NCBI GenBank assembly: GCA_902802905.1
Contig: CADCNT010000003.1
Coordinates: 24,354-88,353, forward strand
Direction: 5' to 3'
DNA length: 64,000 bases
From: an uncultured Erysipelotrichaceae bacterium
Lineage (GTDB): Bacteria; Bacillota_I; Bacilli_A; RFN20; CAG-826
Part shown: in pieces, positions 1,809-60,187 of the stretch
Position numbering within the stretch: position 1 is the first letter of the stretch
Layout: each line of letters starts with the position of its first letter
Translations under genes and position numbers: made by a program
The notes under the pieces: model-generated
The model's database searches: none
What the model was told of the DNA's origin: nothing
The model's input: the letters and a program-made list of their open reading frames with translations, nothing else

Positions 1809-1836
1809 AGACCTGCATTGCAGGTCTTTCTTTTTT
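1809..1836 (+). terminator. Rho-independent terminator of valS
   Basis: Hairpin AGACCTGC-ATT-GCAGGTCT followed by TTCTTTTTT, 7 nt after the valS stop. Confidence 0.75.
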
Positions 1837-1842
1837 CTAATT

Positions 1843-1904
1843 CACTTTTGAAAAATTTTTTAGCAAATTTTGAAAAAAATCGCCTCTTTATTATATGAGG
1901 GGGG
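1843..1904 (+). promoter_or_regulatory. Conserved promoter-like element, copy A (partner at 52439-52499 on the minus strand)
   Basis: About 60 nt nearly identical to the reverse complement of 52439-52499, with a ~42-nt identical core. It contains TTTTGAAAAA twice at 22-bp spacing (1846-1855, 1868-1877), TTGAAA (1870-1875), a 16-nt spacer and TATATG (1892-1897). Confidence 0.5.
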
Positions 1905-1973
1905 AATTCTATCCTCGATTATTATTGGCATTGTGAAACTCCTTATAAATTCTCCCCTCAGGAGGTACAAAAA

Positions 1974-2156
1974 ATGAAATATGAATTACTTTCTGAACAA
2001 GAAATGGAAAATCAAGTTAGTGGTGAAGCCTTAACTTTAACCGCAGTGATGGCGGTACTTGCGACAGCGATTATTGCCGTCATTGTCTATCGTATGTTCA
2101 TGTCTGACAAAGGGAGCGCAACCGTTCCTGGTGGTTGGAAATTCTCTTGGAATTAA
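1974..2156 (+). CDS. Small membrane-active peptide/protein with a double-glycine-like leader (60 aa)
   Basis: Strong SD AGGAGG lies 8 nt upstream of the ATG. The N-terminus MKYELLSEQEMENQVSG resembles an LSxxELxxIxGG leader. It has one hydrophobic helix and a GGWKFSWN tail. Its stop overlaps the radC ATG (TAATG). Confidence 0.6.
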   Translation: MKYELLSEQEMENQVSGEALTLTAVMAVLATAIIAVIVYRMFMSDKGSATVPGGWKFSWN

Positions 2157-2833
2157 TGGGCATTATTAAATCATTGCCTACACTTGAGCGCCCACGCGAA
2201 AAGGCGCTCAGGTATGGTTTAGATGAATTGAGCGATTATGAACTATTAGCGATCCTTCTTGGCAGTGGTTATAAAGGGGAAAATGTCATGGAGCTCGCCT
2301 TTAGTTTACTAAGTAAATATGGGGGATTAGAAAATCTAACAAACATACCTTTTTCAGAACTAAAAAAGAACAAAGGAATTAAAAATGCGAAAGCGCTTAA
2401 TCTAGAAGCGATATTCGAATTTCATCGACGCTTACTATTTAAAAAGTATGAGCAAAATGATGAAATAATTGATGCAGAGTATTTATTTAATAAATACTTT
2501 CCTATATTTGGGAGAGCAAATCAGGAGCAAATTGTCATCGTTATTTTGTCTAAATATAAAAAGATAATTCATGAGTCAATTCTTTTCAAAGGCGGTGAAG
2601 ATGGGGTTCAGATTTCTCTTAGTGAGATTATTAAAGAAGTGATGTCTTATGGGGGCAAATATTTCTATCTGATTCATAACCATCCAAATGGCAGTCACGA
2701 GCCTAGTAAACAAGACACAATGGCCACTAGTTATCTCTTTGCTGAGAGTCGAAGAATGAAGATTCCAATGTTAGATCACATCATCATATCTATAAATGGG
2801 TATTATTCATTTAAAAAAATGAAAAAAACTTAG
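2156..2833 (+). CDS. radC: RadC-family JAB/MPN domain protein
   Basis: N-terminal LERPREKALRYG and an HNHPNGSHEPSKQD JAMM-like motif. The start is placed at ATG 2156 (MGIIKSL...), with an alternative in-frame ATG at 2135. Position between valS and rplU matches Bacillus. Confidence 0.85.
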   Translation: MGIIKSLPTLERPREKALRYGLDELSDYELLAILLGSGYKGENVMELAFSLLSKYGGLENLTNIPFSELKKNKGIKNAKALNLEAIFEFHRRLLFKKYEQNDEIIDAEYLFNKYFPIFGRANQEQIVIVILSKYKKIIHESILFKGGEDGVQISLSEIIKEVMSYGGKYFYLIHNHPNGSHEPSKQDTMATSYLFAESRRMKIPMLDHIIISINGYYSFKKMKKT

Positions 2834-2841
2834 ATTTCTTG

Positions 2842-2981
2842 TTGAACTATATTTATAACTTATGTTATATTACTCACGTTGTCGCCTCACTAGCTACAAC
2901 CGCCTAGAAAAGGTTTTATAAAAACCTATGGTTACCTTAATAGCGAGTCCTTAGTGAATTTTAAAAAGAAGGAGGGACATT
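2842..2981 (+). promoter_or_regulatory. rplU operon promoter plus ~100-nt structured leader (possible L21-leader type autoregulatory RNA)
   Basis: TTGAAC (2842-2847), 18-nt spacer, extended -10 TGtTATATT (2863-2871). The leader has a local hairpin AGGTTTT-ATA-AAAACCT and long-range TCACTA/TAGTGA complementarity. Firmicutes carry an L21 leader at this position. Confidence 0.4.
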
Positions 2982-3290
2982 ATGTACGCAATCATCGAAA
3001 CTGGTGGAAAACAAATTCGCGTAGAAGTCGGCGCTAAAATTTTCGTTGAAAAGTTAGACGCTGAAGTTGGTTCAACTGTCACCTTAGACAAAGTTCTCCT
3101 CGTTTGTGACAAAAAAGCAAAAGTCGGAACCCCTTATGTTAAAGGCGCAAATGTAGTTGCTAAAGTTGAAAAACAAGGTAAATCCAAAAAAATTCGTGTT
3201 TTCACCTATAAGAATAAGGCTAACGAAAAACGCTGCTTAGGCCATCGTCAACCTTATACATGTTTAGTCATTGAAAGCATTAACGCTTAA
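2982..3290 (+). CDS. rplU: 50S ribosomal protein bL21
   Basis: [17 protein letters not shown]... is a typical L21 N-terminus. SD GGAGGG lies upstream. Confidence 0.95.
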
Positions 3291-3298
3291 TTGTAACT

Positions 3299-3607
3299 AT
3301 GATTAAAGTAGTTATCAAAAGAGACGAATCCACTGACAAAATTACTTCAATAGAGGTTAAAGGTCACGCTCACAAAGATGCCTATGGCAAAGATCTAGTC
3401 TGTGCTGCTATAAGCGCCATCATGACTGGAGGAATGAACGCCTTAGTTGATAAAGATTATCGCTTCATTCTCGAGGAAGGTCATGCCCTAGTGGAAGCCC
3501 TAGATATCCCAAGTGATTATGACGCAGTTGTCTTAAAGACAATTGAGATTCAATTAAAAACCGTTGAAGAAGCTGAAAAGGATTTCGTCCAAGTCAAGAA
3601 TTTATAG
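3299..3607 (+). CDS. prp: Ribosomal-processing cysteine protease Prp (YsxB family)
   Basis: Sits between rplU and rpmA. GHAH...DLVCAAISA motif (His/Cys dyad). Confidence 0.85.
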
Positions 3608-3612
3608 AAAGG

Positions 3613-3909
3613 ATGAATCACATTATGATGTTTAAATTAAACTTACAACTCTTCGCTTCTAAAAAAGGTGTTGGTTCTACTAAAAACGGTCGTGACTCTG
3701 CTGGTCGTAGGTTAGGTGCTAAAGTTGCTGATGGTCAATGGTGCCATGCTGGTAGCATTATCTATCGTCAAAGAGGTACAAGAATCTATCCAGGAGAAAA
3801 TACCAAGAGAGGCAAAGATGACACAATCTTTGCAACCGCTAACGGTATTGTCAAATACGAACGTTTAGGTAAAGACCGCAAACAAGTGAGAGTTATTGCT
3901 GATAAATAA
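3613..3909 (+). CDS. rpmA: 50S ribosomal protein bL27 with N-terminal propeptide
   Basis: [23 protein letters not shown] matches the Firmicutes L27 propeptide and Prp cleavage site. The true start may be ATG 3625 or 3628 rather than 3613. Confidence 0.9.
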
Positions 3910-10534: not shown

Positions 10535-12091
10535 ATGAACAAGACTTTATTTGAACGCTTGCTTGATTACTATCAAATCAGTCAAGAAGAGTATGAAAGA
10601 ATTACTTCTGAAGTCTCTTTGACTACTTTTAGTAGTGGCCATCAATTTGACGAAATTGATAAAGCAGTTAATCTTGTTAAGGATGTTCTAAAAAGTGACG
10701 GCAAAATCCTTGTCTATGGTGATTATGATGCGGATGGAATAATGGGAACTTCTATCTTGGTAAAGATGTTCAACTATTTAGATAAAGAAATCGATTATTA
10801 CATTCCTAATCGTTACAACGATGGTTACGGGTTAAATGTTGAACACGCTAAAGAATATATTGAAGAAAAATACGATTTGATTATCACTGTAGATAACGGC
10901 ATTACCGCGTTTGAACCGATTGAGATGCTACATAATGCCGGCATTAAGGTCTTAATCTTAGATCATCATCAAAATCAAGATACAGTGCCTCTAGCAGACG
11001 CGATTTGTCATCCAATCTATTCTCATTTTGGAGAAACCCCTTCTAGTGGTGCGTTTACCGCTTTTATGTTCTCCATAACTTTATTAGGTAGAATTGATAA
11101 ATATTTGTCAGTACTAGCATCTATTTCTCTAGTGAGTGATATGATGCCTTTATTAGATTACAATCGCTCTTTATTAAGAGCGGTAATCGCTTCTTATAAA
11201 CATGACGAATTTTTAGCGGTCGATTTATTAGGTGATAAAGAAACATTTAACGAACAACTCATTGGTATGAAAATCGCTCCTAGAATCAACGCGATTGGAA
11301 GACTTTGCGATGATACTTCAATAAATGAAATTGTGAAATATTTTGTCAGCGATGATAAAGATTTTATTTTAAACTACCATTCCTATATTTTAGAGATGAA
11401 CACCGCCAGAAAAGAACTCTCCAAATTTGACATCGATAAGTCTAATTTTACCGGCGAAGAAAAGGCGATTGTGTTCATTGGAGATTTTAAAGAAGGAATC
11501 ATTGGACTTGCCGCTAATTCAATTATGTCGGCCTATCATATACCTGTCGTGGTTTTTACTGAAACTAGTGATGGAAGTTTAAAAGGTAGTGCACGTGCTC
11601 CAGAAGGTTTTGATATTGTGGAAGCCTTTTCTATGCTAGACGATATTTTACTCACTCATGGCGGTCACGCGATGGCGGGAGGCTGCTCGATTAAAAAAGA
11701 AGATTTTGATGAATTCAAGCGTCGTTTTATAAAGATTGCGGAAACAAAACCTTTAAAAAAGGTTGAGCACGCTTTTATTGATTTAGGGATTAGCGAATTA
11801 ACATTTGATAACTACGACTTAATTCAATCATTCTCTCCATTTGGTGAATCTTGGCCTGCTCCATTATTTAAATTAAAGCACATCAAGGTTAGTTCACTGA
11901 TGTATTCACGTGATCACAAGCATGTGATAACCAATATTGGCAATAGGCAAAAACTCGTCTATTTCAACTATCCAAAAGATAAGTTGGAAGGCGAAAACTT
12001 CATTGATGTTACTGGCTACATTTCTAAAAAATCATTCCAAGGATACATCTATTTAGAATTCAGCGTCAAAGAGATGTTTCCTGCCAAATAA
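10535..12091 (+). CDS. recJ: Single-stranded-DNA-specific exonuclease RecJ (short form)
   Basis: DHH family motifs (GDYDADGI, LDHHQ) and a DHHA1-like GGHAMAGG. The track start GTG 10517 lies inside the secDF terminator, so ATG 10535 is preferred. Confidence 0.85.
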   Translation: MNKTLFERLLDYYQISQEEYERITSEVSLTTFSSGHQFDEIDKAVNLVKDVLKSDGKILVYGDYDADGIMGTSILVKMFNYLDKEIDYYIPNRYNDGYGLNVEHAKEYIEEKYDLIITVDNGITAFEPIEMLHNAGIKVLILDHHQNQDTVPLADAICHPIYSHFGETPSSGAFTAFMFSITLLGRIDKYLSVLASISLVSDMMPLLDYNRSLLRAVIASYKHDEFLAVDLLGDKETFNEQLIGMKIAPRINAIGRLCDDTSINEIVKYFVSDDKDFILNYHSYILEMNTARKELSKFDIDKSNFTGEEKAIVFIGDFKEGIIGLAANSIMSAYHIPVVVFTETSDGSLKGSARAPEGFDIVEAFSMLDDILLTHGGHAMAGGCSIKKEDFDEFKRRFIKIAETKPLKKVEHAFIDLGISELTFDNYDLIQSFSPFGESWPAPLFKLKHIKVSSLMYSRDHKHVITNIGNRQKLVYFNYPKDKLEGENFIDVTGYISKKSFQGYIYLEFSVKEMFPAK

Positions 12092-12201
12092 CTTTTAAAC
12101 TACATACACTCATTTTCAACAAGATAACTTAAGCAAAATTATGAATAAAATAATTTTGTTTTTTATTAGGTGTATTCTTTATTTCTTTATAAAAGGAATA
12201 A

Positions 12202-14439
12202 ATGAGACTACAATATTCAAGTATGAGCAAAGAAAACAAGTCTTTAGTCAATGGTGGATATCCTTTACACACCTTCGAGCAACTCGAAGAAAGATATAAG
12301 GAGTATATTTCTAATGAGGCTGACATTCAAGCGATTAGAGATGCGTATCAATTCATCATCAAAAAGCATCAAGGTCAATTTAGAAAAAGTGGTGAACCTT
12401 ATTATCACCATCTTTTAGAAGTGGCTTTTATTCTTGCTTCTTTGCAAGCTGGTCCAATTACCATTATTGCCGGCTTGTTGCATGATGTTGTCGAAGACAC
12501 TGATACATCAATTGAAGATTTAAGAAGAAGATGGGGCGATGAAGTTGCTAAGATTGTCGACTCATTAACTAAGATTCAACGTTTAAAGCTATCTAAGATA
12601 AGCAGTGAAGATTTTGAAGCCGAAGATCATCGTAAGATTTTCATCGGCATGGCTAAAGATATCCGTGTCATTATCATCAAATTAGCGGATCGCTTGCATA
12701 ACATGAGAACACTAGGTTCTTTATCTCAAGAAAGACAGATTGCCTTATCAAAAGAAACCAGAGACGTTTTTGTGCCAATCGCACATCGACTAGGTTTAGA
12801 CAACATTAAGTGTGAGCTCGCTGATTTGTGTCTAAAATATTTAGAACCAGAAAAATATCAAGAGATTGTCTCATTGCTTTCTCAAAAAGAGAAAAAGTTA
12901 AAGAAATCTCTTAGTGTTTTCCAAAAGAAGTTAGCAGATATCATCTTTGAACACGGCATTCCTTTTGAAATCTCTTCAAGAGTGAAATCCATTTCTTCAA
13001 TTTATGACAAGATGTATATCAAAGGTCATCAATTTGATGAAATCTACGATATTCTCGCATTGCGTATCATTTGTGAAACCGAACTTCAATGTTATGAAAT
13101 CCTCGGTTTAATTCACCAAATATACACCCCAGTTCCAGGGAGATTTAAAGACTATATTGCCATGCCTAAACCAAACATGTATCAGTCTTTACACACCACG
13201 GTGATTTCTGGTGATGGAAACTTCTATGAAGTACAAATCCGTACCAAAGAAATGGATGAAGTCGCCGAATCTGGCGTTGCCGCTCACTGGGCTTATAAAG
13301 AACAAGCGGGATATAATCCAAAAGAAGAACAAAAAGAAATTGAAAATAAATTGCATTGGTTTAGAGACTTTGTCTCTATTAGTAGTGACAAAGACGCTAG
13401 CGCGAGCGACTATATGGATACGCTCTCGCACGACATTTTCGAAGCTAACGTTTATGTCTTTACCCCAACCGGTAAAGTTATTGAGCTTGCTAGCGGATCA
13501 ACTCCAATCGACTTTGCTTATCGTATTCACACCAAAGTTGGTGATAGTGCAGTCGGCGCCATCGTTAACGGAGTTATGGTGCCGCTTAATACCGTCCTTA
13601 AAACTGGCGACAAAGTGGAAATCAAAACTAGTAAGTCTTCTCCAGGCCCTAATGAAGGATGGCTTGAATTTGTTAAAACTGGTTTAGCCAGAAGCCAAAT
13701 CAAAAAATTCTTAGCCAAAAAGAACGCGGCCCTAGTTAGAGAAGAGAAAATTGCCAAAGGCAAACAATCAGCCTTAGATGCGTTTAAAGACCGTGGAATT
13801 GAAGAAGCAGAAATGTTAGAAATGCTTTCAAGTGACAAAGTTTTAAACGAATTTGGCTTTGATAATATAGATGAATTGTTTATCGGCATTTCGAATAGAA
13901 AACCGGTTCCAAGTGCAATTATTGAATTCTTAAAAATTAAAAAGCCAGTTGCTCTTCCTATTGGAAAAGCAAAGAGTAGAAGTGGCGATAATAGTGTTCC
14001 TGTCTACTGTAGAGGCGCTGATCGCATCGCGATATCGCTTGCAAACTGCTGTACGCCAATTCCAGGAGATAACATTGTTGGCTATGTGACACGCGGTAAA
14101 GGAATTCAAGTGCATAGAGCGAATTGTCCAAATGTTGCCGAGCAAAAACAAAGATTAATCGATGTTTATTGGAAAGAAGATATTGAATACGCGACATATC
14201 CAGTCGATGTCTCTTTAGAGGCTAATGACCGTTCCAATCTATTGATTGATATCATGAACACACTTAGCAGTGCAAAAGTGATGGTCTCTAGTTTGCATGC
14301 ACAAATTCAACATCATAATACCACTGTTGTTGTGGTCACTATGACCATTTATGTCAGTGATGCAAAACGATTAAATGATATTTTTAATATCATATTAAAT
14401 ATTAAAGGTGTTTATAACATCAAAAGAGTAATTCATTAA
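12202..14439 (+). CDS. relA: Bifunctional (p)ppGpp synthetase/hydrolase Rel
   Basis: HD hydrolase motif (LLHDVVEDT), synthetase domain, and TGS and ACT-like C-terminus; 745 aa. Confidence 0.93.
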   Translation: MRLQYSSMSKENKSLVNGGYPLHTFEQLEERYKEYISNEADIQAIRDAYQFIIKKHQGQFRKSGEPYYHHLLEVAFILASLQAGPITIIAGLLHDVVEDTDTSIEDLRRRWGDEVAKIVDSLTKIQRLKLSKISSEDFEAEDHRKIFIGMAKDIRVIIIKLADRLHNMRTLGSLSQERQIALSKETRDVFVPIAHRLGLDNIKCELADLCLKYLEPEKYQEIVSLLSQKEKKLKKSLSVFQKKLADIIFEHGIPFEISSRVKSISSIYDKMYIKGHQFDEIYDILALRIICETELQCYEILGLIHQIYTPVPGRFKDYIAMPKPNMYQSLHTTVISGDGNFYEVQIRTKEMDEVAESGVAAHWAYKEQAGYNPKEEQKEIENKLHWFRDFVSISSDKDASASDYMDTLSHDIFEANVYVFTPTGKVIELASGSTPIDFAYRIHTKVGDSAVGAIVNGVMVPLNTVLKTGDKVEIKTSKSSPGPNEGWLEFVKTGLARSQIKKFLAKKNAALVREEKIAKGKQSALDAFKDRGIEEAEMLEMLSSDKVLNEFGFDNIDELFIGISNRKPVPSAIIEFLKIKKPVALPIGKAKSRSGDNSVPVYCRGADRIAISLANCCTPIPGDNIVGYVTRGKGIQVHRANCPNVAEQKQRLIDVYWKEDIEYATYPVDVSLEANDRSNLLIDIMNTLSSAKVMVSSLHAQIQHHNTTVVVVTMTIYVSDAKRLNDIFNIILNIKGVYNIKRVIH

Positions 14440-14452
14440 AGGAGGAATAGCG

Positions 14453-15760
14453 ATGGAAGAAATCAAAAATGTCAAAGGCACTCATGACGTATATGCGGAT
14501 GAGAATAATGCCTATGAAAAAGTTGAAAACTTGATGAAATCAATTGCTGAGATTTATGCTTATCAGGGTGTTAGACCCCCAGTTTTAGAGCATAGTCCTG
14601 TCTTTGTACGTGGTGTTGGTGAAGGAAGCGACATCGTTAGAAAAGAAATGTATACATTCTTGGATAAAGGTGGTCGTGAATTGACCCTCCGTCCAGAATT
14701 TACCGCTGGTATCATGCGTTTAGTGGTGCAAAACAAATTGTATGCTACTAACGAATTGCCACTTAAACTCTACTATGTAGGTCCAGTATTCCGCTATGAA
14801 AGACCACAATTAGGTAGATATCGTCAATTCAACCAATTTGGTGTGGAATCAATTGGCCATAATTCTCCTTTAAATGATGTTGAAGTCATTGTTTTGGCTT
14901 ATACAATTCTCTGCTCTCTAGGATTAGAGAATGTGAAAATTAAAATCAATACATTAGGTGATGAAGAATCACGTAATAATTATAGAAATGCCTTAAAGGC
15001 ATACTTTGCTGGTCATATTGAGAATATGTGTGTGGACTGCAAGAGCAGATTTGAAATCAATCCACTCCGTATTTTAGACTGCAAAGTTCCTGAAGACCGT
15101 CCAATTATCGAAGGGGCTCCAAAAATCGGCGCTTACTTATCTAAAGACAGCCAAGAAAGATTTGATCAAGTTCTTGAAGCGCTCGAAGCTTTGCAGATTC
15201 CTTATGAAATCAATCAAAGTTTAGTTAGAGGCTTAGATTATTATTCAGAAACCGTCTTTGAATTCCATTATAAGAGCAAGGAAGGCAATGATTATGGCGC
15301 AGTTGGCGCTGGTGGACACTATGGCAAGCTCATGAGCGAACTTGGTGGACCAGATCTTCCGGGTGTTGGTTTTTCTTTCGGAATCGAAAGAATTGTCTCT
15401 GTTTTAAAAGATGATGGCTTATTAGAAGACGTAAAAAATCAATTAGATGCTTACATCATGCCTTTAGACAAGGAATCGATGATTTACGCTGAGGAAGTCG
15501 CAGTTATTTTACGTAATAGCGGCGGCTATAAAGTCGATATGTGCTTTGACAACGTCAAATTAGGCAACATGTTTAAGCGCGCAGCAAATAAAAAAGCAAA
15601 ATTTGCCATTATCATTGGCGAAAATGAAGTTAAAGAAGAATCAGTGGTTTTAAAAGATCTTGCAAAGCAAGAACAAATCACTGTCAAAGTTGAAGAGCTC
15701 GTCGATAAGTTCGACGAATTATATGAAGCGTCATATGGTGAAGAGGAGGAAGAATTATGA
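14453..15760 (+). CDS. hisS: Histidine--tRNA ligase
   Basis: Class II motifs (LRPEFTAG, FRYERPQLGRYRQF, GGGHY-like). SD GGAGG lies upstream. Confidence 0.95.
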   Translation: MEEIKNVKGTHDVYADENNAYEKVENLMKSIAEIYAYQGVRPPVLEHSPVFVRGVGEGSDIVRKEMYTFLDKGGRELTLRPEFTAGIMRLVVQNKLYATNELPLKLYYVGPVFRYERPQLGRYRQFNQFGVESIGHNSPLNDVEVIVLAYTILCSLGLENVKIKINTLGDEESRNNYRNALKAYFAGHIENMCVDCKSRFEINPLRILDCKVPEDRPIIEGAPKIGAYLSKDSQERFDQVLEALEALQIPYEINQSLVRGLDYYSETVFEFHYKSKEGNDYGAVGAGGHYGKLMSELGGPDLPGVGFSFGIERIVSVLKDDGLLEDVKNQLDAYIMPLDKESMIYAEEVAVILRNSGGYKVDMCFDNVKLGNMFKRAANKKAKFAIIIGENEVKEESVVLKDLAKQEQITVKVEELVDKFDELYEASYGEEEEEL

Positions 15761-17515: not shown

Positions 17516-17544
17516 TACTAATCTATTACTAATTTAATACTAAT
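17516..17544 (-). repeat. Phased heptamer array (3 x TACTAAT on the plus strand, 11-bp period)
   Basis: TACTAAT at 17516, 17527 and 17538. It is preceded by the AT hairpin TATATAC-TTT-GTATATA (17495-17511). It lies between the aspS stop and the tkt SD. Confidence 0.85.
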
Positions 17545-28988: not shown

Positions 28989-29006
28989 ATTAGTAGATAA
29001 TTAGTA
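28989..29006 (+). repeat. Phased heptamer array (2 x ATTAGTA, 11-bp period)
   Basis: ATTAGTA at 28989 and 29000, starting on the nucleotide after the regulator stop codon. The second unit forms the left arm of the terminator stem. Confidence 0.8.
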
Positions 29007-32336: not shown

Positions 32337-32363
32337 GAAAAAAGTAGTCAATTATTAACTACT
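32337..32363 (-). terminator. Rho-independent terminator after parC
   Basis: Minus strand: AGTAGT-TAATAATTG-ACTACT followed by TTTTTT. The left arm is the last heptamer unit. Confidence 0.65.
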
Positions 32364-32388
32364 AATCAACTACTAATTTTCTACTATA
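32360..32388 (-). repeat. Phased heptamer array (minus strand TATAGTA, ATTAGTA, ATTAGTA; 11-bp period)
   Basis: Plus strand: TACTAAT at 32360 and 32371, TACTATA at 32382. The AT hairpin ATATAAC-TTT-GTTATAT (32399-32415) lies between the parC stop and the array. Confidence 0.85.
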
Positions 32389-37828: not shown

Positions 37829-37857
37829 ATTAGTAATAAATTAGTAGAAAATTAGTA
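37829..37857 (+). repeat. Phased heptamer array (3 x ATTAGTA, 11-bp period)
   Basis: ATTAGTA at 37829, 37840 and 37851, starting 3 nt after the plsY stop and upstream of the plsY terminator. Confidence 0.9.
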
Positions 37858-41781: not shown

Positions 41782-42645
41782 ATGCACGTAAGTCTAATAA
41801 AACCTCAAGGATTTTGTTCCGGAGTAACAAAAGCAGTATCAATTGCTAAGCAAGCAAAGAAAGAACACCCAAACGAGAATGTCTATATTTTAGGTATGCT
41901 TGCGCATAATCAAACATTGATTGACGATTTAACTAAAGAAGGACTTATCACATTAAGTGATGAGAATGAAATTAAAGCGTTAGAAAAGTTACAAAAAGGT
42001 GATGTTGTTATTTTTACCGCGCATGGACACAGTGAAAAGGTAGAGCAGAAAGCAAAAGATTTAGGCTTAATTATATACGATGCAACATGCTTTAAAGTGA
42101 AAAGCAATCTCGAGAAGATTAAAGAAGAAATCAACGCTGGACATCAAGTGATTTACATCGGACAAAAGGGTCACAAAGAAACAAATGCAGCGTTATCAGT
42201 TTCAAACAATGTATCATTATATGATACAAAACTACTAATAAACTACTATTTAATTACTGATAAAAATCCTTATGTTATAAACCAAACAACCCTTAATTTT
42301 CAAGAATTAAATAAGCTTCACGAAGATATTTTGAGTCATATTCCAGGTGCTAGAATCGAAAATGAGATATGCGCCGCCACAAGATTAAGACAAGAAGCTG
42401 TCGGCAAAATTGAACGCGATACTGATTTAATCATTATTGTTGGTCATCAAAAATCAAGTAACTCAAATAGATTATTTGAAATTGCGAGCAATCTTTTCCA
42501 TAACGCCACAGTCATTATGGTTAACGATTTAGATGAATTAAAGAAGCATGACATTGAAGCAAAGAAAAAAGCCGCTGTTGTTTCAGGGGCTTCTACTCCA
42601 CAATACGTGGTTGATGAAATATATAAATATTTGCTTAGCAAATAA
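41782..42645 (+). CDS. ispH: 4-hydroxy-3-methylbut-2-enyl diphosphate reductase (MEP pathway)
   Basis: PQGFCSGV, INQTTL and SSNSNRL motifs of IspH/LytB. Confidence 0.92.
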   Translation: MHVSLIKPQGFCSGVTKAVSIAKQAKKEHPNENVYILGMLAHNQTLIDDLTKEGLITLSDENEIKALEKLQKGDVVIFTAHGHSEKVEQKAKDLGLIIYDATCFKVKSNLEKIKEEINAGHQVIYIGQKGHKETNAALSVSNNVSLYDTKLLINYYLITDKNPYVINQTTLNFQELNKLHEDILSHIPGARIENEICAATRLRQEAVGKIERDTDLIIIVGHQKSSNSNRLFEIASNLFHNATVIMVNDLDELKKHDIEAKKKAAVVSGASTPQYVVDEIYKYLLSK

Positions 42646-47223: not shown

Positions 47224-47252
47224 TACTAATTTTTTACTAATTTTATACTAAT
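47224..47252 (-). repeat. Phased heptamer array (3 x ATTAGTA on the minus strand, 11-bp period)
   Basis: Plus strand: TACTAAT at 47224, 47235 and 47246. The unit at 47246 contains the glyQS TAG stop codon. The array fills the glyQS-dnaG spacer. Confidence 0.9.
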
Positions 47253-50716: not shown

Positions 50717-51172
50717 TTATATTCCTTTCGCTGATAAGATTTCATCTTGTAAACTAAACATTATTTTTTCATCTTCTTCTTTCATGTGATCAAACCCTAG
50801 TAAATGAAGCAACCCATGAATGAAGAGAAATGATAATTCCCGGTGGAGACTATGTCCATATTCTTCAGCTTGCTCTTTTGCTTTATCAATTGAGATATAA
50901 ATATCTCCTAAAACAACAACACCTGGGGAAGAAAGTATTTTATCATAGTTTCCTTCCGCGTCAACAAAAGCAAAGCTGATGACATCAGTTGGGCGATCAA
51001 TACCGCGGTACTTCTTATTGATTTTATGGATGTATTTGTTGTCCACAAAGGAAACAGAAACAATTGGATCACACTTAATGTCCAACCTTTTAAGCGTGAA
51101 CGCCATTAAATCTAAATAATGTTCTTCGTATTGATCGAATTCCGGAAATTTTGAATTAAAATCTAATTCCAT
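50717..51172 (-). CDS. ybeY: rRNA maturation endoribonuclease YbeY
   Basis: HGLLHLLGFDH metal-binding motif; 151 aa. Confidence 0.93.
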   Translation of the reverse strand: MELDFNSKFPEFDQYEEHYLDLMAFTLKRLDIKCDPIVSVSFVDNKYIHKINKKYRGIDRPTDVISFAFVDAEGNYDKILSSPGVVVLGDIYISIDKAKEQAEEYGHSLHRELSFLFIHGLLHLLGFDHMKEEDEKIMFSLQDEILSAKGI

Positions 51173-51199: not shown

Positions 51200-52417
51200 T
51201 CATACTATTGAATTGTTACTCACATTTAAATCGAGGCAATGGAGTAGTTTCACTAATTGGTTGTCGAAGTCCTCGCTCTGCGAAGAACATTCGAGCAAAC
51301 GGATGAAATTATCTTTAAGATAAACTGATATACAAAGATAAAAGACAACATAAATCACACTGACGACATGAGATAGAGACATGATGGTAACCGCTGACAT
51401 CAATAAAACGGCAACTTCAATGTAAGAGAAAGTGTTTCTAAATAAACCTAACTGATACGCCGCGTCATGAGTGTTATTCACTACTGCGCGAAATTGAAAT
51501 TGATTGGCTACTGTCTTGATTTTTAGTTCTTCTTCTGCGAGTTCATTGCTCTTTCTTTTATGATAAGGAAGATAAACATAGACATGAATAATGGCTAAAA
51601 CTAGTGCTAAAAGCACATAGATAACATTAATTGCCCCATTCATGACTAAAAGCACTGTCATAAAGATAGAAACTAAAGCCGCATAGATGAAATTAGGAAT
51701 CGTCGACAATGCCACGTAGCGGTATTTTTCTTCAACTTTATAAAATTCGTATAGCTCGCTAGGTTCTACGGTGATTTTATAGTTGAAAATGTTGTCATCC
51801 ATTCTTTTTAAAGCATTAATCAAACCTTTACGAAATATAATTTCGAAGATGAAGAATAACGCAAAGAGAATGATCGGAACGAAGAAATAGGAGCTGGAAT
51901 TAATGAAATAGACAGCAAGCAAAAGTGAAACTCCACTAGCGAGCTGCCAGATAGGAAGAGCGACCTTGTCTTTCTTGCTGATGAAATCAATGGGCTCAAA
52001 ATCACATTCTACGTGCACGTATTCTTGCTCTTTTTCAATAATTAACGCCCGTAAATCCCATTGTTCATATAAAGTATCCAATGGAATCCTTCTTTTTCCA
52101 ACTTCTGGATCATAAACTTTGACATATTTTTTAGTTGCTTTAAGCAAAAGAACACTATGTCTAATTCCTTTGCCTTTATCAAGAGTTATCATAAATGGAA
52201 ATTCTTTACTTCCAATTAACTCCTGCACACTTTTGATTTTGATGCCTAATGTGTTCATATGATATTTTGAAGCAATATCTTTGAGTTCTTTAAAACTGTA
52301 GGCATCTTTCTTTCCGGGTAAGAAAAGATAATTCTTGTCGTGATGATAATTAGCCAACATCATCTTTAGACAAGCAAAGGCACAATCATGTTGGCCGACT
52401 TGAGATATAAAATACAT
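51200..52417 (-). CDS. Peptidase C39 (bacteriocin-processing type) domain fused to a multi-pass membrane domain, with no ABC ATPase domain
   Basis: The N-terminal ~130 aa carry the full C39 signature: Q6/Q9, C12 in GQHDCAFACLKMML, H87 in IRHSVLLL, D103 in VYDPEVG. About 5-6 TM helices follow. The protein ends at 405 aa without Walker motifs. Strong SD AAGGAGG. Confidence 0.75.
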   Translation of the reverse strand: MYFISQVGQHDCAFACLKMMLANYHHDKNYLFLPGKKDAYSFKELKDIASKYHMNTLGIKIKSVQELIGSKEFPFMITLDKGKGIRHSVLLLKATKKYVKVYDPEVGKRRIPLDTLYEQWDLRALIIEKEQEYVHVECDFEPIDFISKKDKVALPIWQLASGVSLLLAVYFINSSSYFFVPIILFALFFIFEIIFRKGLINALKRMDDNIFNYKITVEPSELYEFYKVEEKYRYVALSTIPNFIYAALVSIFMTVLLVMNGAINVIYVLLALVLAIIHVYVYLPYHKRKSNELAEEELKIKTVANQFQFRAVVNNTHDAAYQLGLFRNTFSYIEVAVLLMSAVTIMSLSHVVSVIYVVFYLCISVYLKDNFIRLLECSSQSEDFDNQLVKLLHCLDLNVSNNSIV

Positions 52418-52438
52418 TTGACCTCCTTTGTAGAGTAT

Positions 52439-52499
52439 CCCCTACATATAATAAAGAGGCGATTTTTTTCAAAATTTGCTAAAAAAATTTTCGAAAGTG
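52439..52499 (-). promoter_or_regulatory. Conserved promoter-like element, copy B (partner at 1843-1904)
   Basis: The reverse complement reads CACTTTCGAAAATTTTTTTAGCAAATTTTGAAAAAAATCGCCTCTTTATTATATGTAGGGG. This has 2 substitutions over the first 57 nt relative to copy A. Confidence 0.5.
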
Positions 52500-52504
52500 A
52501 TGTT

Positions 52505-52532
52505 AGTAAAAGAAAAGACCCATTAGGGTCTT
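52505..52532 (-). terminator. Rho-independent terminator of the hrcA-grpE-dnaK-dnaJ operon
   Basis: Minus strand: AAGACCC-TAAT-GGGTCTT followed by TTCTTTT. The hairpin overlaps the dnaJ stop. Confidence 0.7.
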
Positions 52533-53661
52533 ATTTTTTGAAATTTTTTTTGAATTTGTTATAAGGGTTATCACTGTCTTTGGTGTTGTCCTTATATTGT
52601 TGCAAGGCTTCTTTTTGCTTGCGATTAAGGGAGGTTGGAGACTTGATGTCGAGATGAACATATTGGTCGCCAGGCTTACCAGTACGCAAATCTTTAATAC
52701 CCTGCCCGCGCATTCTCAGTGTTTGTCCAGGTTGAGTGCCTTCTGGAATGGTAAGTAAGACATCACCGTTCACTGTTGGGACTTCAATCTTAGTTCCTAA
52801 GATAGCGTCAACAAAGTCGATTGGAATGTCGATATGAATATCGTTTCTTTCGCGTTTGAAGTATGGATGTGGTTTGACATTGATTTCAATATAGAGATCG
52901 CCGTGTTCTCCACCATTGCTTCCAGCACCACCCATTCCTTGTAGACGAATTTGTTGTCCGCTTTGAATACCGACTGGAATATGAATCTTCATCGTCTTCT
53001 TAACGCGCTTATGGCCGCTACCACCACAGACTGAACATTTCTTTGAAATGATACGGCCGCTACCACCACAATCTGGACAGACTGTTTCCGTATTCACCAT
53101 ACCAAACAAGCTTCTTTGTTGTCTAATAATTGAGCCTTTACCACCACACTTAGAACAGGTTTTTACATCGCTTGGTGTATCAGCACCTGTACCGTGACAA
53201 TGTGGGCAATCATCATCAAAGTCGAATGATACTTCTTCATCTTTGCCGTTCACCACGTCCATAAATTCGACGCGATGCTTCATCAAGATGTCGTCTCCTC
53301 TTTGAGGACCGGTTCGATGTGCACTACGACGTGAACCGCCTCCAAAGAAGCTTGAGAAGATGTCACCTAAGTTGATATCCTCTCCAAATCCAGAGAATCC
53401 ACCAAATGGATTGCCTCCAGCAGGGCCTCCTCCGGTTTGTTCAAAGGCAGCATGGCCAAATTGATCATAGGCTGAACGTTTTTGGTCATCATATAAAATA
53501 TCGTATGCTTCCTGAACCTCTTTAAATTTCGCTTCATCACCAGTTTCTTTATTGTCTGGATGATATTTTTTCGCTAATTTACGATAGGCAGATTTGATTT
53601 CATCTTTAGATGCACTTTTAGAGACACCTAGAACTTCATAATAATCTCTTTTTGTTGCCAT
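52531..53661 (-). CDS. dnaJ: Chaperone DnaJ
   Basis: J domain (HPD in KKYHPDNK), a G/F region and four CxxCxGxG zinc repeats. Confidence 0.96.
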
Positions 53662-60141: not shown

Positions 60142-60157
60142 TACTAAAACTAAAAAC

Positions 60158-60187
60158 CTACTAATTTTATACCAATTATTTATTAAT
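60158..60187 (-). repeat. Degenerate phased heptamer array at the lepA stop
   Basis: Plus strand: TACTAAT (60158), TACCAAT (60169), TATTAAT (60181, containing the lepA TAA stop). Spacings are 11 and 12 bp. Confidence 0.6.

Follow-up and report, generated by a model that had tools for sequence, protein, structure and literature searches.

Introduction

Peptidase-containing ATP-binding cassette (ABC) transporters (PCATs) are the textbook case of leader-peptide cleavage strictly coupled to ATP-driven export. In the absence of ATP, PCAT1 of Clostridium thermocellum is inward-facing: the peptidase is docked at a lateral opening, its groove holds the substrate leader, and the cargo occupies the cavity. 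Efficient cleavage depends on the transporter core, and the peptidase disengages once ATP is bound (PMC6959990). The same has been stated for NukT (cited in PMC6363468). Here we describe C39TM, a gene located on the reverse strand at positions 51200..52417 of a stretch of 64,000 nucleotides (64 kb; hereafter the window) from an uncultured Erysipelotrichaceae bacterium (GenBank assembly GCA_902802905.1, contig CADCNT010000003.1, positions 24,354 to 88,353). C39TM encodes a 405-residue PCAT-like protein lacking the nucleotide-binding domain (NBD), and a 60-residue peptide encoded in the same window, pep60, is its candidate substrate.

The C39TM protein shares with PCAT1, ComA, LagD, LahT and NukT the N-terminal C39 peptidase with its Gln, Cys, His and Asp residues and, with PCAT1, an exporter membrane domain of six helices, the two domains being arranged in the same way relative to each other. 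It differs from this group, whose members have about 700 aa and an NBD, in its size and domain content, and its membrane domain is too diverged for the Pfam profile ABC_membrane. Furthermore, PCATs of this group have their substrates in the same operon and act on variable secreted cargo, whereas the candidate substrate of C39TM is encoded 50 kb away and is a conserved transmembrane (TM) peptide; pep60 resembles the PCAT1 substrates at L(-12), E(-8), L/M(-7) and G(-1) but carries V, T or S at leader position -2. The PCATs of Mollicutes (NCBIfam NF045998, the Mbov_0121 family, and those of Spiroplasma) are similar to C39TM in their ybeY-adjacent locus, seen in two Spiroplasma genomes, and in their collinearity with the C39TM family profile. 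They have, however, an NBD of their own (Walker A GRSGSGKTT, signature LSRGQRQ), and C39TM, which falls below the NF045998 cut-off, is not a member of that family. The HlyB-type C39-like domains (CLDs) of type 1 secretion systems are a structural match for C39TM (7sgr, 8dck) in that they combine a C39 fold with an exporter domain, but they lack the catalytic Cys, are not proteases and are accompanied by an NBD, while C39TM keeps Cys12 and has no NBD. FapD, from the Pseudomonas amyloid system, and the excised LahT150 are, like C39TM, C39 peptidases without an ATPase; unlike C39TM they lack the six-helix exporter domain, and C39TM scored 22 bits against the NCBIfam profile C39_FapD, whose cut-off is 330. 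A precedent for a cargo with a double-glycine (GG) leader that is an abundant, conserved envelope component, and not a bacteriocin, is MAM of Faecalibacterium duncaniae, although in that bacterium the PCAT is complete and ATP-driven and MAM is a larger surface protein (PMC12184118). Our full-text literature searches retrieved no account of PCATs without an NBD, of C39 peptidases in Tenericutes, or of the pep60 peptide.

Results

The C39TM open reading frame (ORF) starts with an ATG at 52417, a few bases downstream of the ribosome-binding site AAAGGAGG, with the Shine-Dalgarno (SD) sequence GGAGG at 52426-52422. Residues 1-131 (52025..52417, reverse strand) constitute a C39 cysteine-peptidase domain. 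The Pfam profile Peptidase_C39 (PF03412, MEROPS C39) matched residues 2-131 over model positions 3-132/133 (E=2.8e-16), with 60 bits against a gathering threshold of 22, and it matched 49 of 49 aligned family members; the assignment agrees with the conserved catalytic residues and with the structural matches described below. Gln6 (codon at 52400-52402), Cys12 (52382-52384), His87 (52157-52159) and Asp103 (52109-52111, all on the reverse strand) are spaced as in the peptidase domains of PCATs, with the oxyanion Gln and the orienting Asp in place. When residues were counted over 133 sequences, comprising the window protein and 132 representatives, these four were retained in 130-132 of them (98-99%; 98% for Cys12). 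The first-pass annotation of this DNA had proposed a catalytically complete C39 domain, a claim borne out by these data; of the residues it listed only Gln9 has to be dropped, as it is unconserved and irrelevant.

After the peptidase, residues 148-393 (51239..51976, reverse strand) are predicted to form a membrane domain of six helices with long extensions into the cytoplasm. An AlphaFold2 model built on 49 homologues (predicted local distance difference test, pLDDT, 87; predicted TM-score, pTM, 0.78) placed helices at residues 148-173, 179-211, 219-259, 262-302, 306-349 and 354-393; short strands were also predicted, at 213-215 within the first cytoplasmic loop and at 395-400 at the C-terminus. 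When this model was compared with the PDB by Foldseek, the best matches were chains of PCAT1 (E=5.7e-14 to 1e-10, query TM-score 0.60-0.65), in alignments of about 460 columns that take in peptidase and membrane domain alike. Next came HlyB, isolated C39 domains (ComA, LahT) and then generic exporters; the latter, MsbA, McjD, TM287/288 and TmrAB, matched the membrane part only. Within this domain at least 95% of the 133 sequences retain D207, K/R233, N260 and E297.

None of the 49 family members matched the Pfam profile ABC_membrane (PF00664) at E<=1, so that the PCAT-like membrane part proposed in the first-pass annotation stands on structure and not on that profile. A search of PDB sequences gave marginal matches to the ComA peptidase domain only, and the closest NCBIfam profile, NF045998, aligned weakly with residues 6-296 (28.8 bits against a cut-off of 500). 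Thus, according to Pfam and NCBIfam the whole protein fits no described family. PADLOC returned no matches for either C39TM or pep60.

With respect to the ATPase, the ORF terminates at residue 405, which is the norm for the family, and the Pfam profile ABC_tran was not matched; the next gene is ybeY. No ABC ATPase ORF was found in the 64-kb window, either with a Walker A plus signature regular expression or by tblastn with the Spiroplasma NBD, the window being the part of the organism's own genome covered by our ATPase and substrate scans. The missing NBD noticed in the first reading is therefore genuine. Judging from the predicted model, C39TM is a PCAT without ATPase, whose membrane domain is recognisable from structure and not from Pfam sequence profiles.

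C39TM belongs to a sizeable family. A word-indexed search retrieved 127 full-length relatives with 38-99% identity, nearly all of 393-413 aa and annotated at source, where any name was given, as 'hypothetical protein'. An exhaustive profile search yielded at least 218 clusters at 50% identity (E<1e-30), and among the 150 clusters listed the length was about 390-415 aa, obvious fragments aside. Our data leave little doubt that C39TM is an active, NBD-less derivative of a PCAT.

In the window the gene order is hrcA-grpE-dnaK-dnaJ-C39TM-ybeY-cdd-era-recO-glyS-dnaG, with dnaJ at 52531-53661 and ybeY at 50717..51172 (reverse strand), starting 27 nt 3' of the C39TM ORF. A terminator-like hairpin after dnaJ (52515..52532, reverse strand; a 7-bp stem followed by a T-run) insulates C39TM from the dnaK-dnaJ operon, as the first reading had it. 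A synteny scan using one genome per GTDB species gave 66 C39TM loci, which stem from rumen, gut and digester metagenome-assembled genomes (MAGs) labelled Bacilli, Erysipelotrichaceae, Mollicutes or Ca. Onthovivens. In the approximately 45 loci that reach far enough, C39TM is directly 5' of ybeY-cdd-era-recO-glyS-dnaG, down to 24% identity and with gaps to ybeY of about 30-140 nt. This adjacency is broken only in L042, L046 and L055, where 4-6 kb lie between the two genes, in L042 because of inserted metabolic genes. The L042 interval (11270-14838) contains four extra ORFs, three of which resemble, by eye, nickel-pincer cofactor (Lar) proteins, and the gap of about 4 kb in L046 is spaced like that of L042. 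On the other side, C39TM follows dnaJ in the closer genomes, while in the distant ones about 4.5 kb separate them, occupied in L042 by mtaB, deoC and rpsU.

As this synteny is fixed across the related genomes examined, C39TM is not an insertion into the housekeeping block, contrary to what was first proposed; it is a resident of the site 5' of ybeY. A PCAT of the complete type, although fragmented, occupies a similar place in two Spiroplasma endosymbiont genomes, just 5' of ybeY-dgkA-cdd. It carries a C39 domain, a membrane domain and an NBD with GRSGSGKTT and LSRGQRQ, and the C39TM family profile is collinear with it over C39 and TM1-TM2 (E=8e-14). These Spiroplasma genes (L064, 9980-12990; L066, 9989-12050) are split into three to four ORFs under genetic code 4 and are apparently decaying. 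The simplest history would be that of an ancestral PCAT at the ybeY position that lost its NBD in the lineage of the window, and the distribution of C39TM is best explained by vertical inheritance of a gene that is fixed in an uncultured clade of rumen and gut Bacilli.

The only small ORF with a GG-like leader within the window is pep60 (1974..2156, forward strand), located about 50 kb from C39TM. Its predicted leader (residues 1-17; 1974-2024) would be cleaved after Gly17, releasing a 43-residue mature part (2025-2153) in which a TM helix precedes a beta-hairpin tail, PGGWKFSWN; the sequence, leader first, is MKYELLSEQEMENQVSG|EALTLTAVMAVLATAIIAVIVYRMFMSDKGSATVPGGWKFSWN. In 69 distinct sequences aligned on the invariant Gly, the leader has L/M at -12 (100%), S/T at -11 (90%), E/D at -8 (94%), M/L/C at -7 (97%), H/I at -4 and G at -1 (100%). 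The substrate consensus of PCAT1 is L(-12)xxxE(-8)L(-7)xxxxG(-2)G(-1), which the pep60 leader fits at -12, -8, -7 and -1 and not at -2 (PMC6959990). A few members have canonical GG leaders, for example LDDVELQEIKGG in L107 and IVGG in L109. The mature part consists of a TM helix of the small-xxx-small type, a basic stretch and an invariant PGGWKF(S/T)W tail, and AlphaFold2 predicted a helix at residues 8-43 and a hairpin at 47-59. The C-terminal 'PGG' was considered as a second cleavage site and discarded, since it is the turn of the predicted beta-hairpin.

Searches of Pfam and NCBIfam with pep60 gave nothing significant. More than 200 close homologues (65-100% identity) are known, a protein-database search with the pep60 profile listed close relatives only, and 80 further loci, encoding peptides of as little as 48% identity, came from a metagenome scan. 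The peptide is more conserved than the C39TM protein within the same genomes (for example, 70% vs. 49% identity in the MAG RGIG9216, and 85% vs. 61% in a 427-kb contig). Its gene is always immediately 5' of radC and, where the contig extends, 3' of valS, in the order valS-pep-radC. Such strong conservation and fixed synteny suggest that pep60 is a membrane peptide with a housekeeping role and neither a pheromone nor a bacteriocin. In the window the end of pep60 overlaps the radC start by 22 nt (2135-2156, forward strand; a mechanical ORF call), and in other genomes its stop and the radC start abut or overlap; the pairing with radC, invariant in the 80 metagenome loci, suggests translational coupling.

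C39TM and pep60 were both present in the five genomes, out of five, where both could be looked up. A survey of small ORFs beside the NBD-less homologues, as the first reading had envisaged, was fruitless: no GG-leader ORF was found within 10 kb of C39TM in 62 loci, and no pep60 homologue beside C39TM in other genomes. The connection of C39TM with the peptide gene at 1974-2156, also suggested at that stage, was strengthened by the leader profile and by the features of an upstream element common to both genes, which had been noticed in the first reading and was confirmed by repeat comparison.

The C39TM copy of this element is at 52431..52515 (reverse strand) and the pep60 copy at 1827..1911 (forward strand). 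Over 85 nt they are 85% identical, with an identical 40-nt core; two copies were found vs. none expected from shuffled sequences, and they form the longest and best-matching repeat of the window. No Rfam family matches the element. The C39TM copy contains an AAAATCG box (52466-52460), the anti-SD sequence GCCTCTTT (52460-52453), the -10-like box TATTATATG and a G-run, and RNAfold predicted pairing between GCCUCUUU and the C39TM SD region at -16.8 kcal/mol (z=-3.4). In the pep60 copy the anti-SD is GCCTCT (1882-1887), and GCCUCU would pair with the SD AGGAGG (1960-1965). Nested within this anti-SD:SD helix, a hairpin of the 5' leader (feature 1897..1965, forward strand) is predicted by RNAfold between GAGGGGGGAATT (1897-1908) and AATTCTCCCCTC (1948-1959), and compensatory versions of this inner hairpin occur in other genomes. 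Pairing of the SD with upstream sequence had a mean computed probability of 0.87 for C39TM and 0.78 for pep60, vs. 0.41 for 81 control genes.

Throughout the phylogenetic range of both families, a CCTCC-like anti-SD is followed by a loop that is rich in A/T and contains a -10-like hexamer, and then by the SD (GGAGG) immediately ahead of the start codon. To compare the two upstream regions, both were fetched from five genomes and local-alignment scores were computed in two runs. In four of the five, the similarity between the two exceeds that to their orthologues in other genomes: within a genome, the pep60 region and the C39TM region scored 108-120, 86, 69-80 and 83 against each other, vs. 12-74 between genomes. 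When 1.46 Mb of fetched DNA were scanned for exact matches to the anti-SD/SD hairpin, 58 occurrences were at pep60 or C39TM starts, about 33 look, by eye, like other-strand reads of the same palindromes, and about 8 lie elsewhere. One of the latter, in L125-L127, was considered as a third member of the regulon and rejected, as it belongs to an IS3-type transposase gene. This IS3-type insertion (orfA, orfB; approximately 2660-3790, reverse strand) is found just 5' of pep60 in that one lineage, and its orfA has its own anti-SD/SD hairpin.

The AAAATCG box (52460-52466 and 1880-1886) lies a few bases 5' of the anti-SD and about 10-25 nt before the -10-like hexamer, and by inspection it recurs 5' of C39TM and pep60 in many genomes. 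It could be a regulator site or the -35 site of an alternative sigma factor. A sigma-70 promoter within the element is ambiguous, with the -10-like box located in the hairpin loop and a weak -35. We infer that the anti-SD element, previously undescribed, mediates post-transcriptional co-regulation of these two unlinked genes.

Other features of the window were recorded. The heptamer TACTAAT occurs in two to three repeats with an 11-nt period at seven sites, mostly between ORFs (17516-17544, 28989-29006, 32360-32388, 37829-37857, 42233-42261, 47224-47252 and 60148-60187), with 14 matches at up to 2 mismatches vs. 1.08 expected from shuffles; they could serve as an array for phased binding of a protein, or be an intergenic repeat specific to the lineage. 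The only Rfam match in the window is an L21_leader (RF00559) at 2888-2961 (forward strand; 40.9 bits, gathering threshold 36), 5' of rplU-ysxB-rpmA. radC directly precedes this ribosomal operon, with no mreBCD between them.

Discussion

On balance we favour, with modest confidence, the view that C39TM is an ATP-independent, membrane-embedded leader peptidase dedicated to pep60 and a platform for its delivery. pep60 itself is probably the substrate, according to its leader and its shared upstream element. As cleavage by PCAT1 requires the transporter core, the retention of a membrane domain in a protein without an NBD would be explained; moreover, since the ATP-free state of PCAT1 is the one competent for cleavage, C39TM would be fixed in that state. 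The amphipathic N-terminal leader of pep60 would bind the C39 groove through L-12, E-8 and M-7, the hydrophobic core helix would sit in the inward-facing membrane cavity or its lateral opening, and C39TM would cut the bond after Gly17. The core might then pass sideways into the bilayer without ATP-driven alternating access. This lateral, ATP-independent delivery is a tentative part of the proposal, to which we would give somewhat less than even chances. More speculatively, the basic residues that follow the TM helix and the five acidic residues of the leader suggest that the leader prevents the peptide from inserting too early, and that after maturation the peptide is oriented N-out, C-in; the acidic leader would keep this zipper-type, single-pass peptide insertion-incompetent until it is cleaved at the membrane. 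C39TM and pep60, which belong to two different housekeeping operons, would be co-controlled through the shared 5' element, with pairing of the anti-SD (CCUCY) and the ribosome-binding site as its constant feature. The full picture, in which a PCAT scaffold was repurposed as an ATP-independent, leader-gated delivery machine kept in step with pep60 by a co-evolving anti-SD element, is a rather doubtful proposition.

Several observations weigh against a dedicated, ATP-independent role. The protein retains long cytoplasmic helix extensions and the loop residues D207 and E297, as for contact with an NBD, and a separately encoded ATPase or other substrates are possible, given that 64 kb of the genome were in view. 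At position -2 the pep60 leader has mostly V, T or S and a G in only 3 of the 69 sequences, and the PCAT1 cleft is narrow and Gly-specific (PMC6959990). In the fifth genome pair the two upstream regions have only short boxes in common. Transcription may start 5' of the anti-SD or in the loop, so that the element could be a translational brake or sensor, or else an insulator against read-through. Finally, cleavage after Gly17 and independence of ATP are both deductions.

The main alternative, which we consider unlikely, is that C39TM is one half of a split ABC exporter whose NBD subunit is encoded elsewhere, powering export of the processed peptide, be it pep60 or others. The full-length helix extensions and conserved loop residues would agree with this arrangement, as would the fact that the nearest relatives, both in structure and in genomic position, are complete PCATs; inspection covered the 64-kb window of the genome only. 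That window contains no ABC ATPase, however, and no NBD gene was noticed beside C39TM in the loci examined, where the six downstream genes are always ybeY-cdd-era-recO-glyS-dnaG. The cytoplasmic extensions are also needed for peptidase docking (PMC6959990). In the C39TM model the strands 213-215 and 395-400, which may pair with each other, are near the point where an NBD would be expected to start. As a general rule, exporters of this fold almost always have a fused NBD. Between the stand-alone peptidase and the ATPase-borrowing half, the evidence leans towards the former.

A still less probable alternative would be that C39TM is a general, membrane-anchored double-glycine leader peptidase for variable secreted peptides, bacteriocins or signals, whose genes are elsewhere, with pep60 a small membrane protein unrelated to it and having only the same type of promoter. 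C39 domains classically process precursors of bacteriocins and pheromones, the -2 position of the pep60 leader is atypical, and C39TM has no adjoining substrate gene. Against this, the 5' element co-varies and its anti-SD hairpin is almost exclusive to the C39TM and pep60 families, the leader signature and the G at -1 are kept throughout the pep60 family, and C39TM is a single gene fixed in a housekeeping block, with no variable bacteriocin island.

It is very improbable that C39TM has a function linked to those of the adjacent genes, either YbeY and Era in ribosome maturation or the chaperones DnaK-DnaJ, for instance as a heat- or stress-controlled membrane protease whose hairpin is an RNA thermometer. 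Although it invariably has dnaJ or rpsU on one side and ybeY on the other, and SD-sequestering hairpins are known from RNA thermometers, the Spiroplasma full-length PCAT near ybeY suggests positional inheritance rather than functional coupling; besides, a terminator separates dnaJ from C39TM, and the same hairpin precedes pep60 in a different neighbourhood, that of valS-radC.

Lastly, a decaying, functionless pseudogene of a full PCAT, or the frameshift or truncation that the first-pass annotation named as a possible refutation, might be suspected from the missing NBD and from the fragmented PCATs of Spiroplasma endosymbionts at this locus, but it is effectively refuted by the uniform length of about 400 aa throughout the family (at least 218 clusters), by the retention of the catalytic residues in 98-99% of the sequences, and by the conservation of the SD and the regulatory element.

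Conclusions

In summary, what is new in this work is the combination of a PCAT scaffold without its motor, an unlinked but conserved substrate candidate and a riboregulatory motif common to both. If our proposal is true, the PCAT scaffold would be useful without alternating access, be it for substrate capture, protease activation or lateral release into the membrane, and C39TM would represent a natural 'inward-locked' PCAT for structural work. The co-evolving anti-SD element on two unlinked genes would provide a compact case, open to testing, of co-regulation at the post-transcriptional level, and pep60 represents a conserved small membrane peptide in a poorly known clade of uncultured Bacilli from the animal gut.

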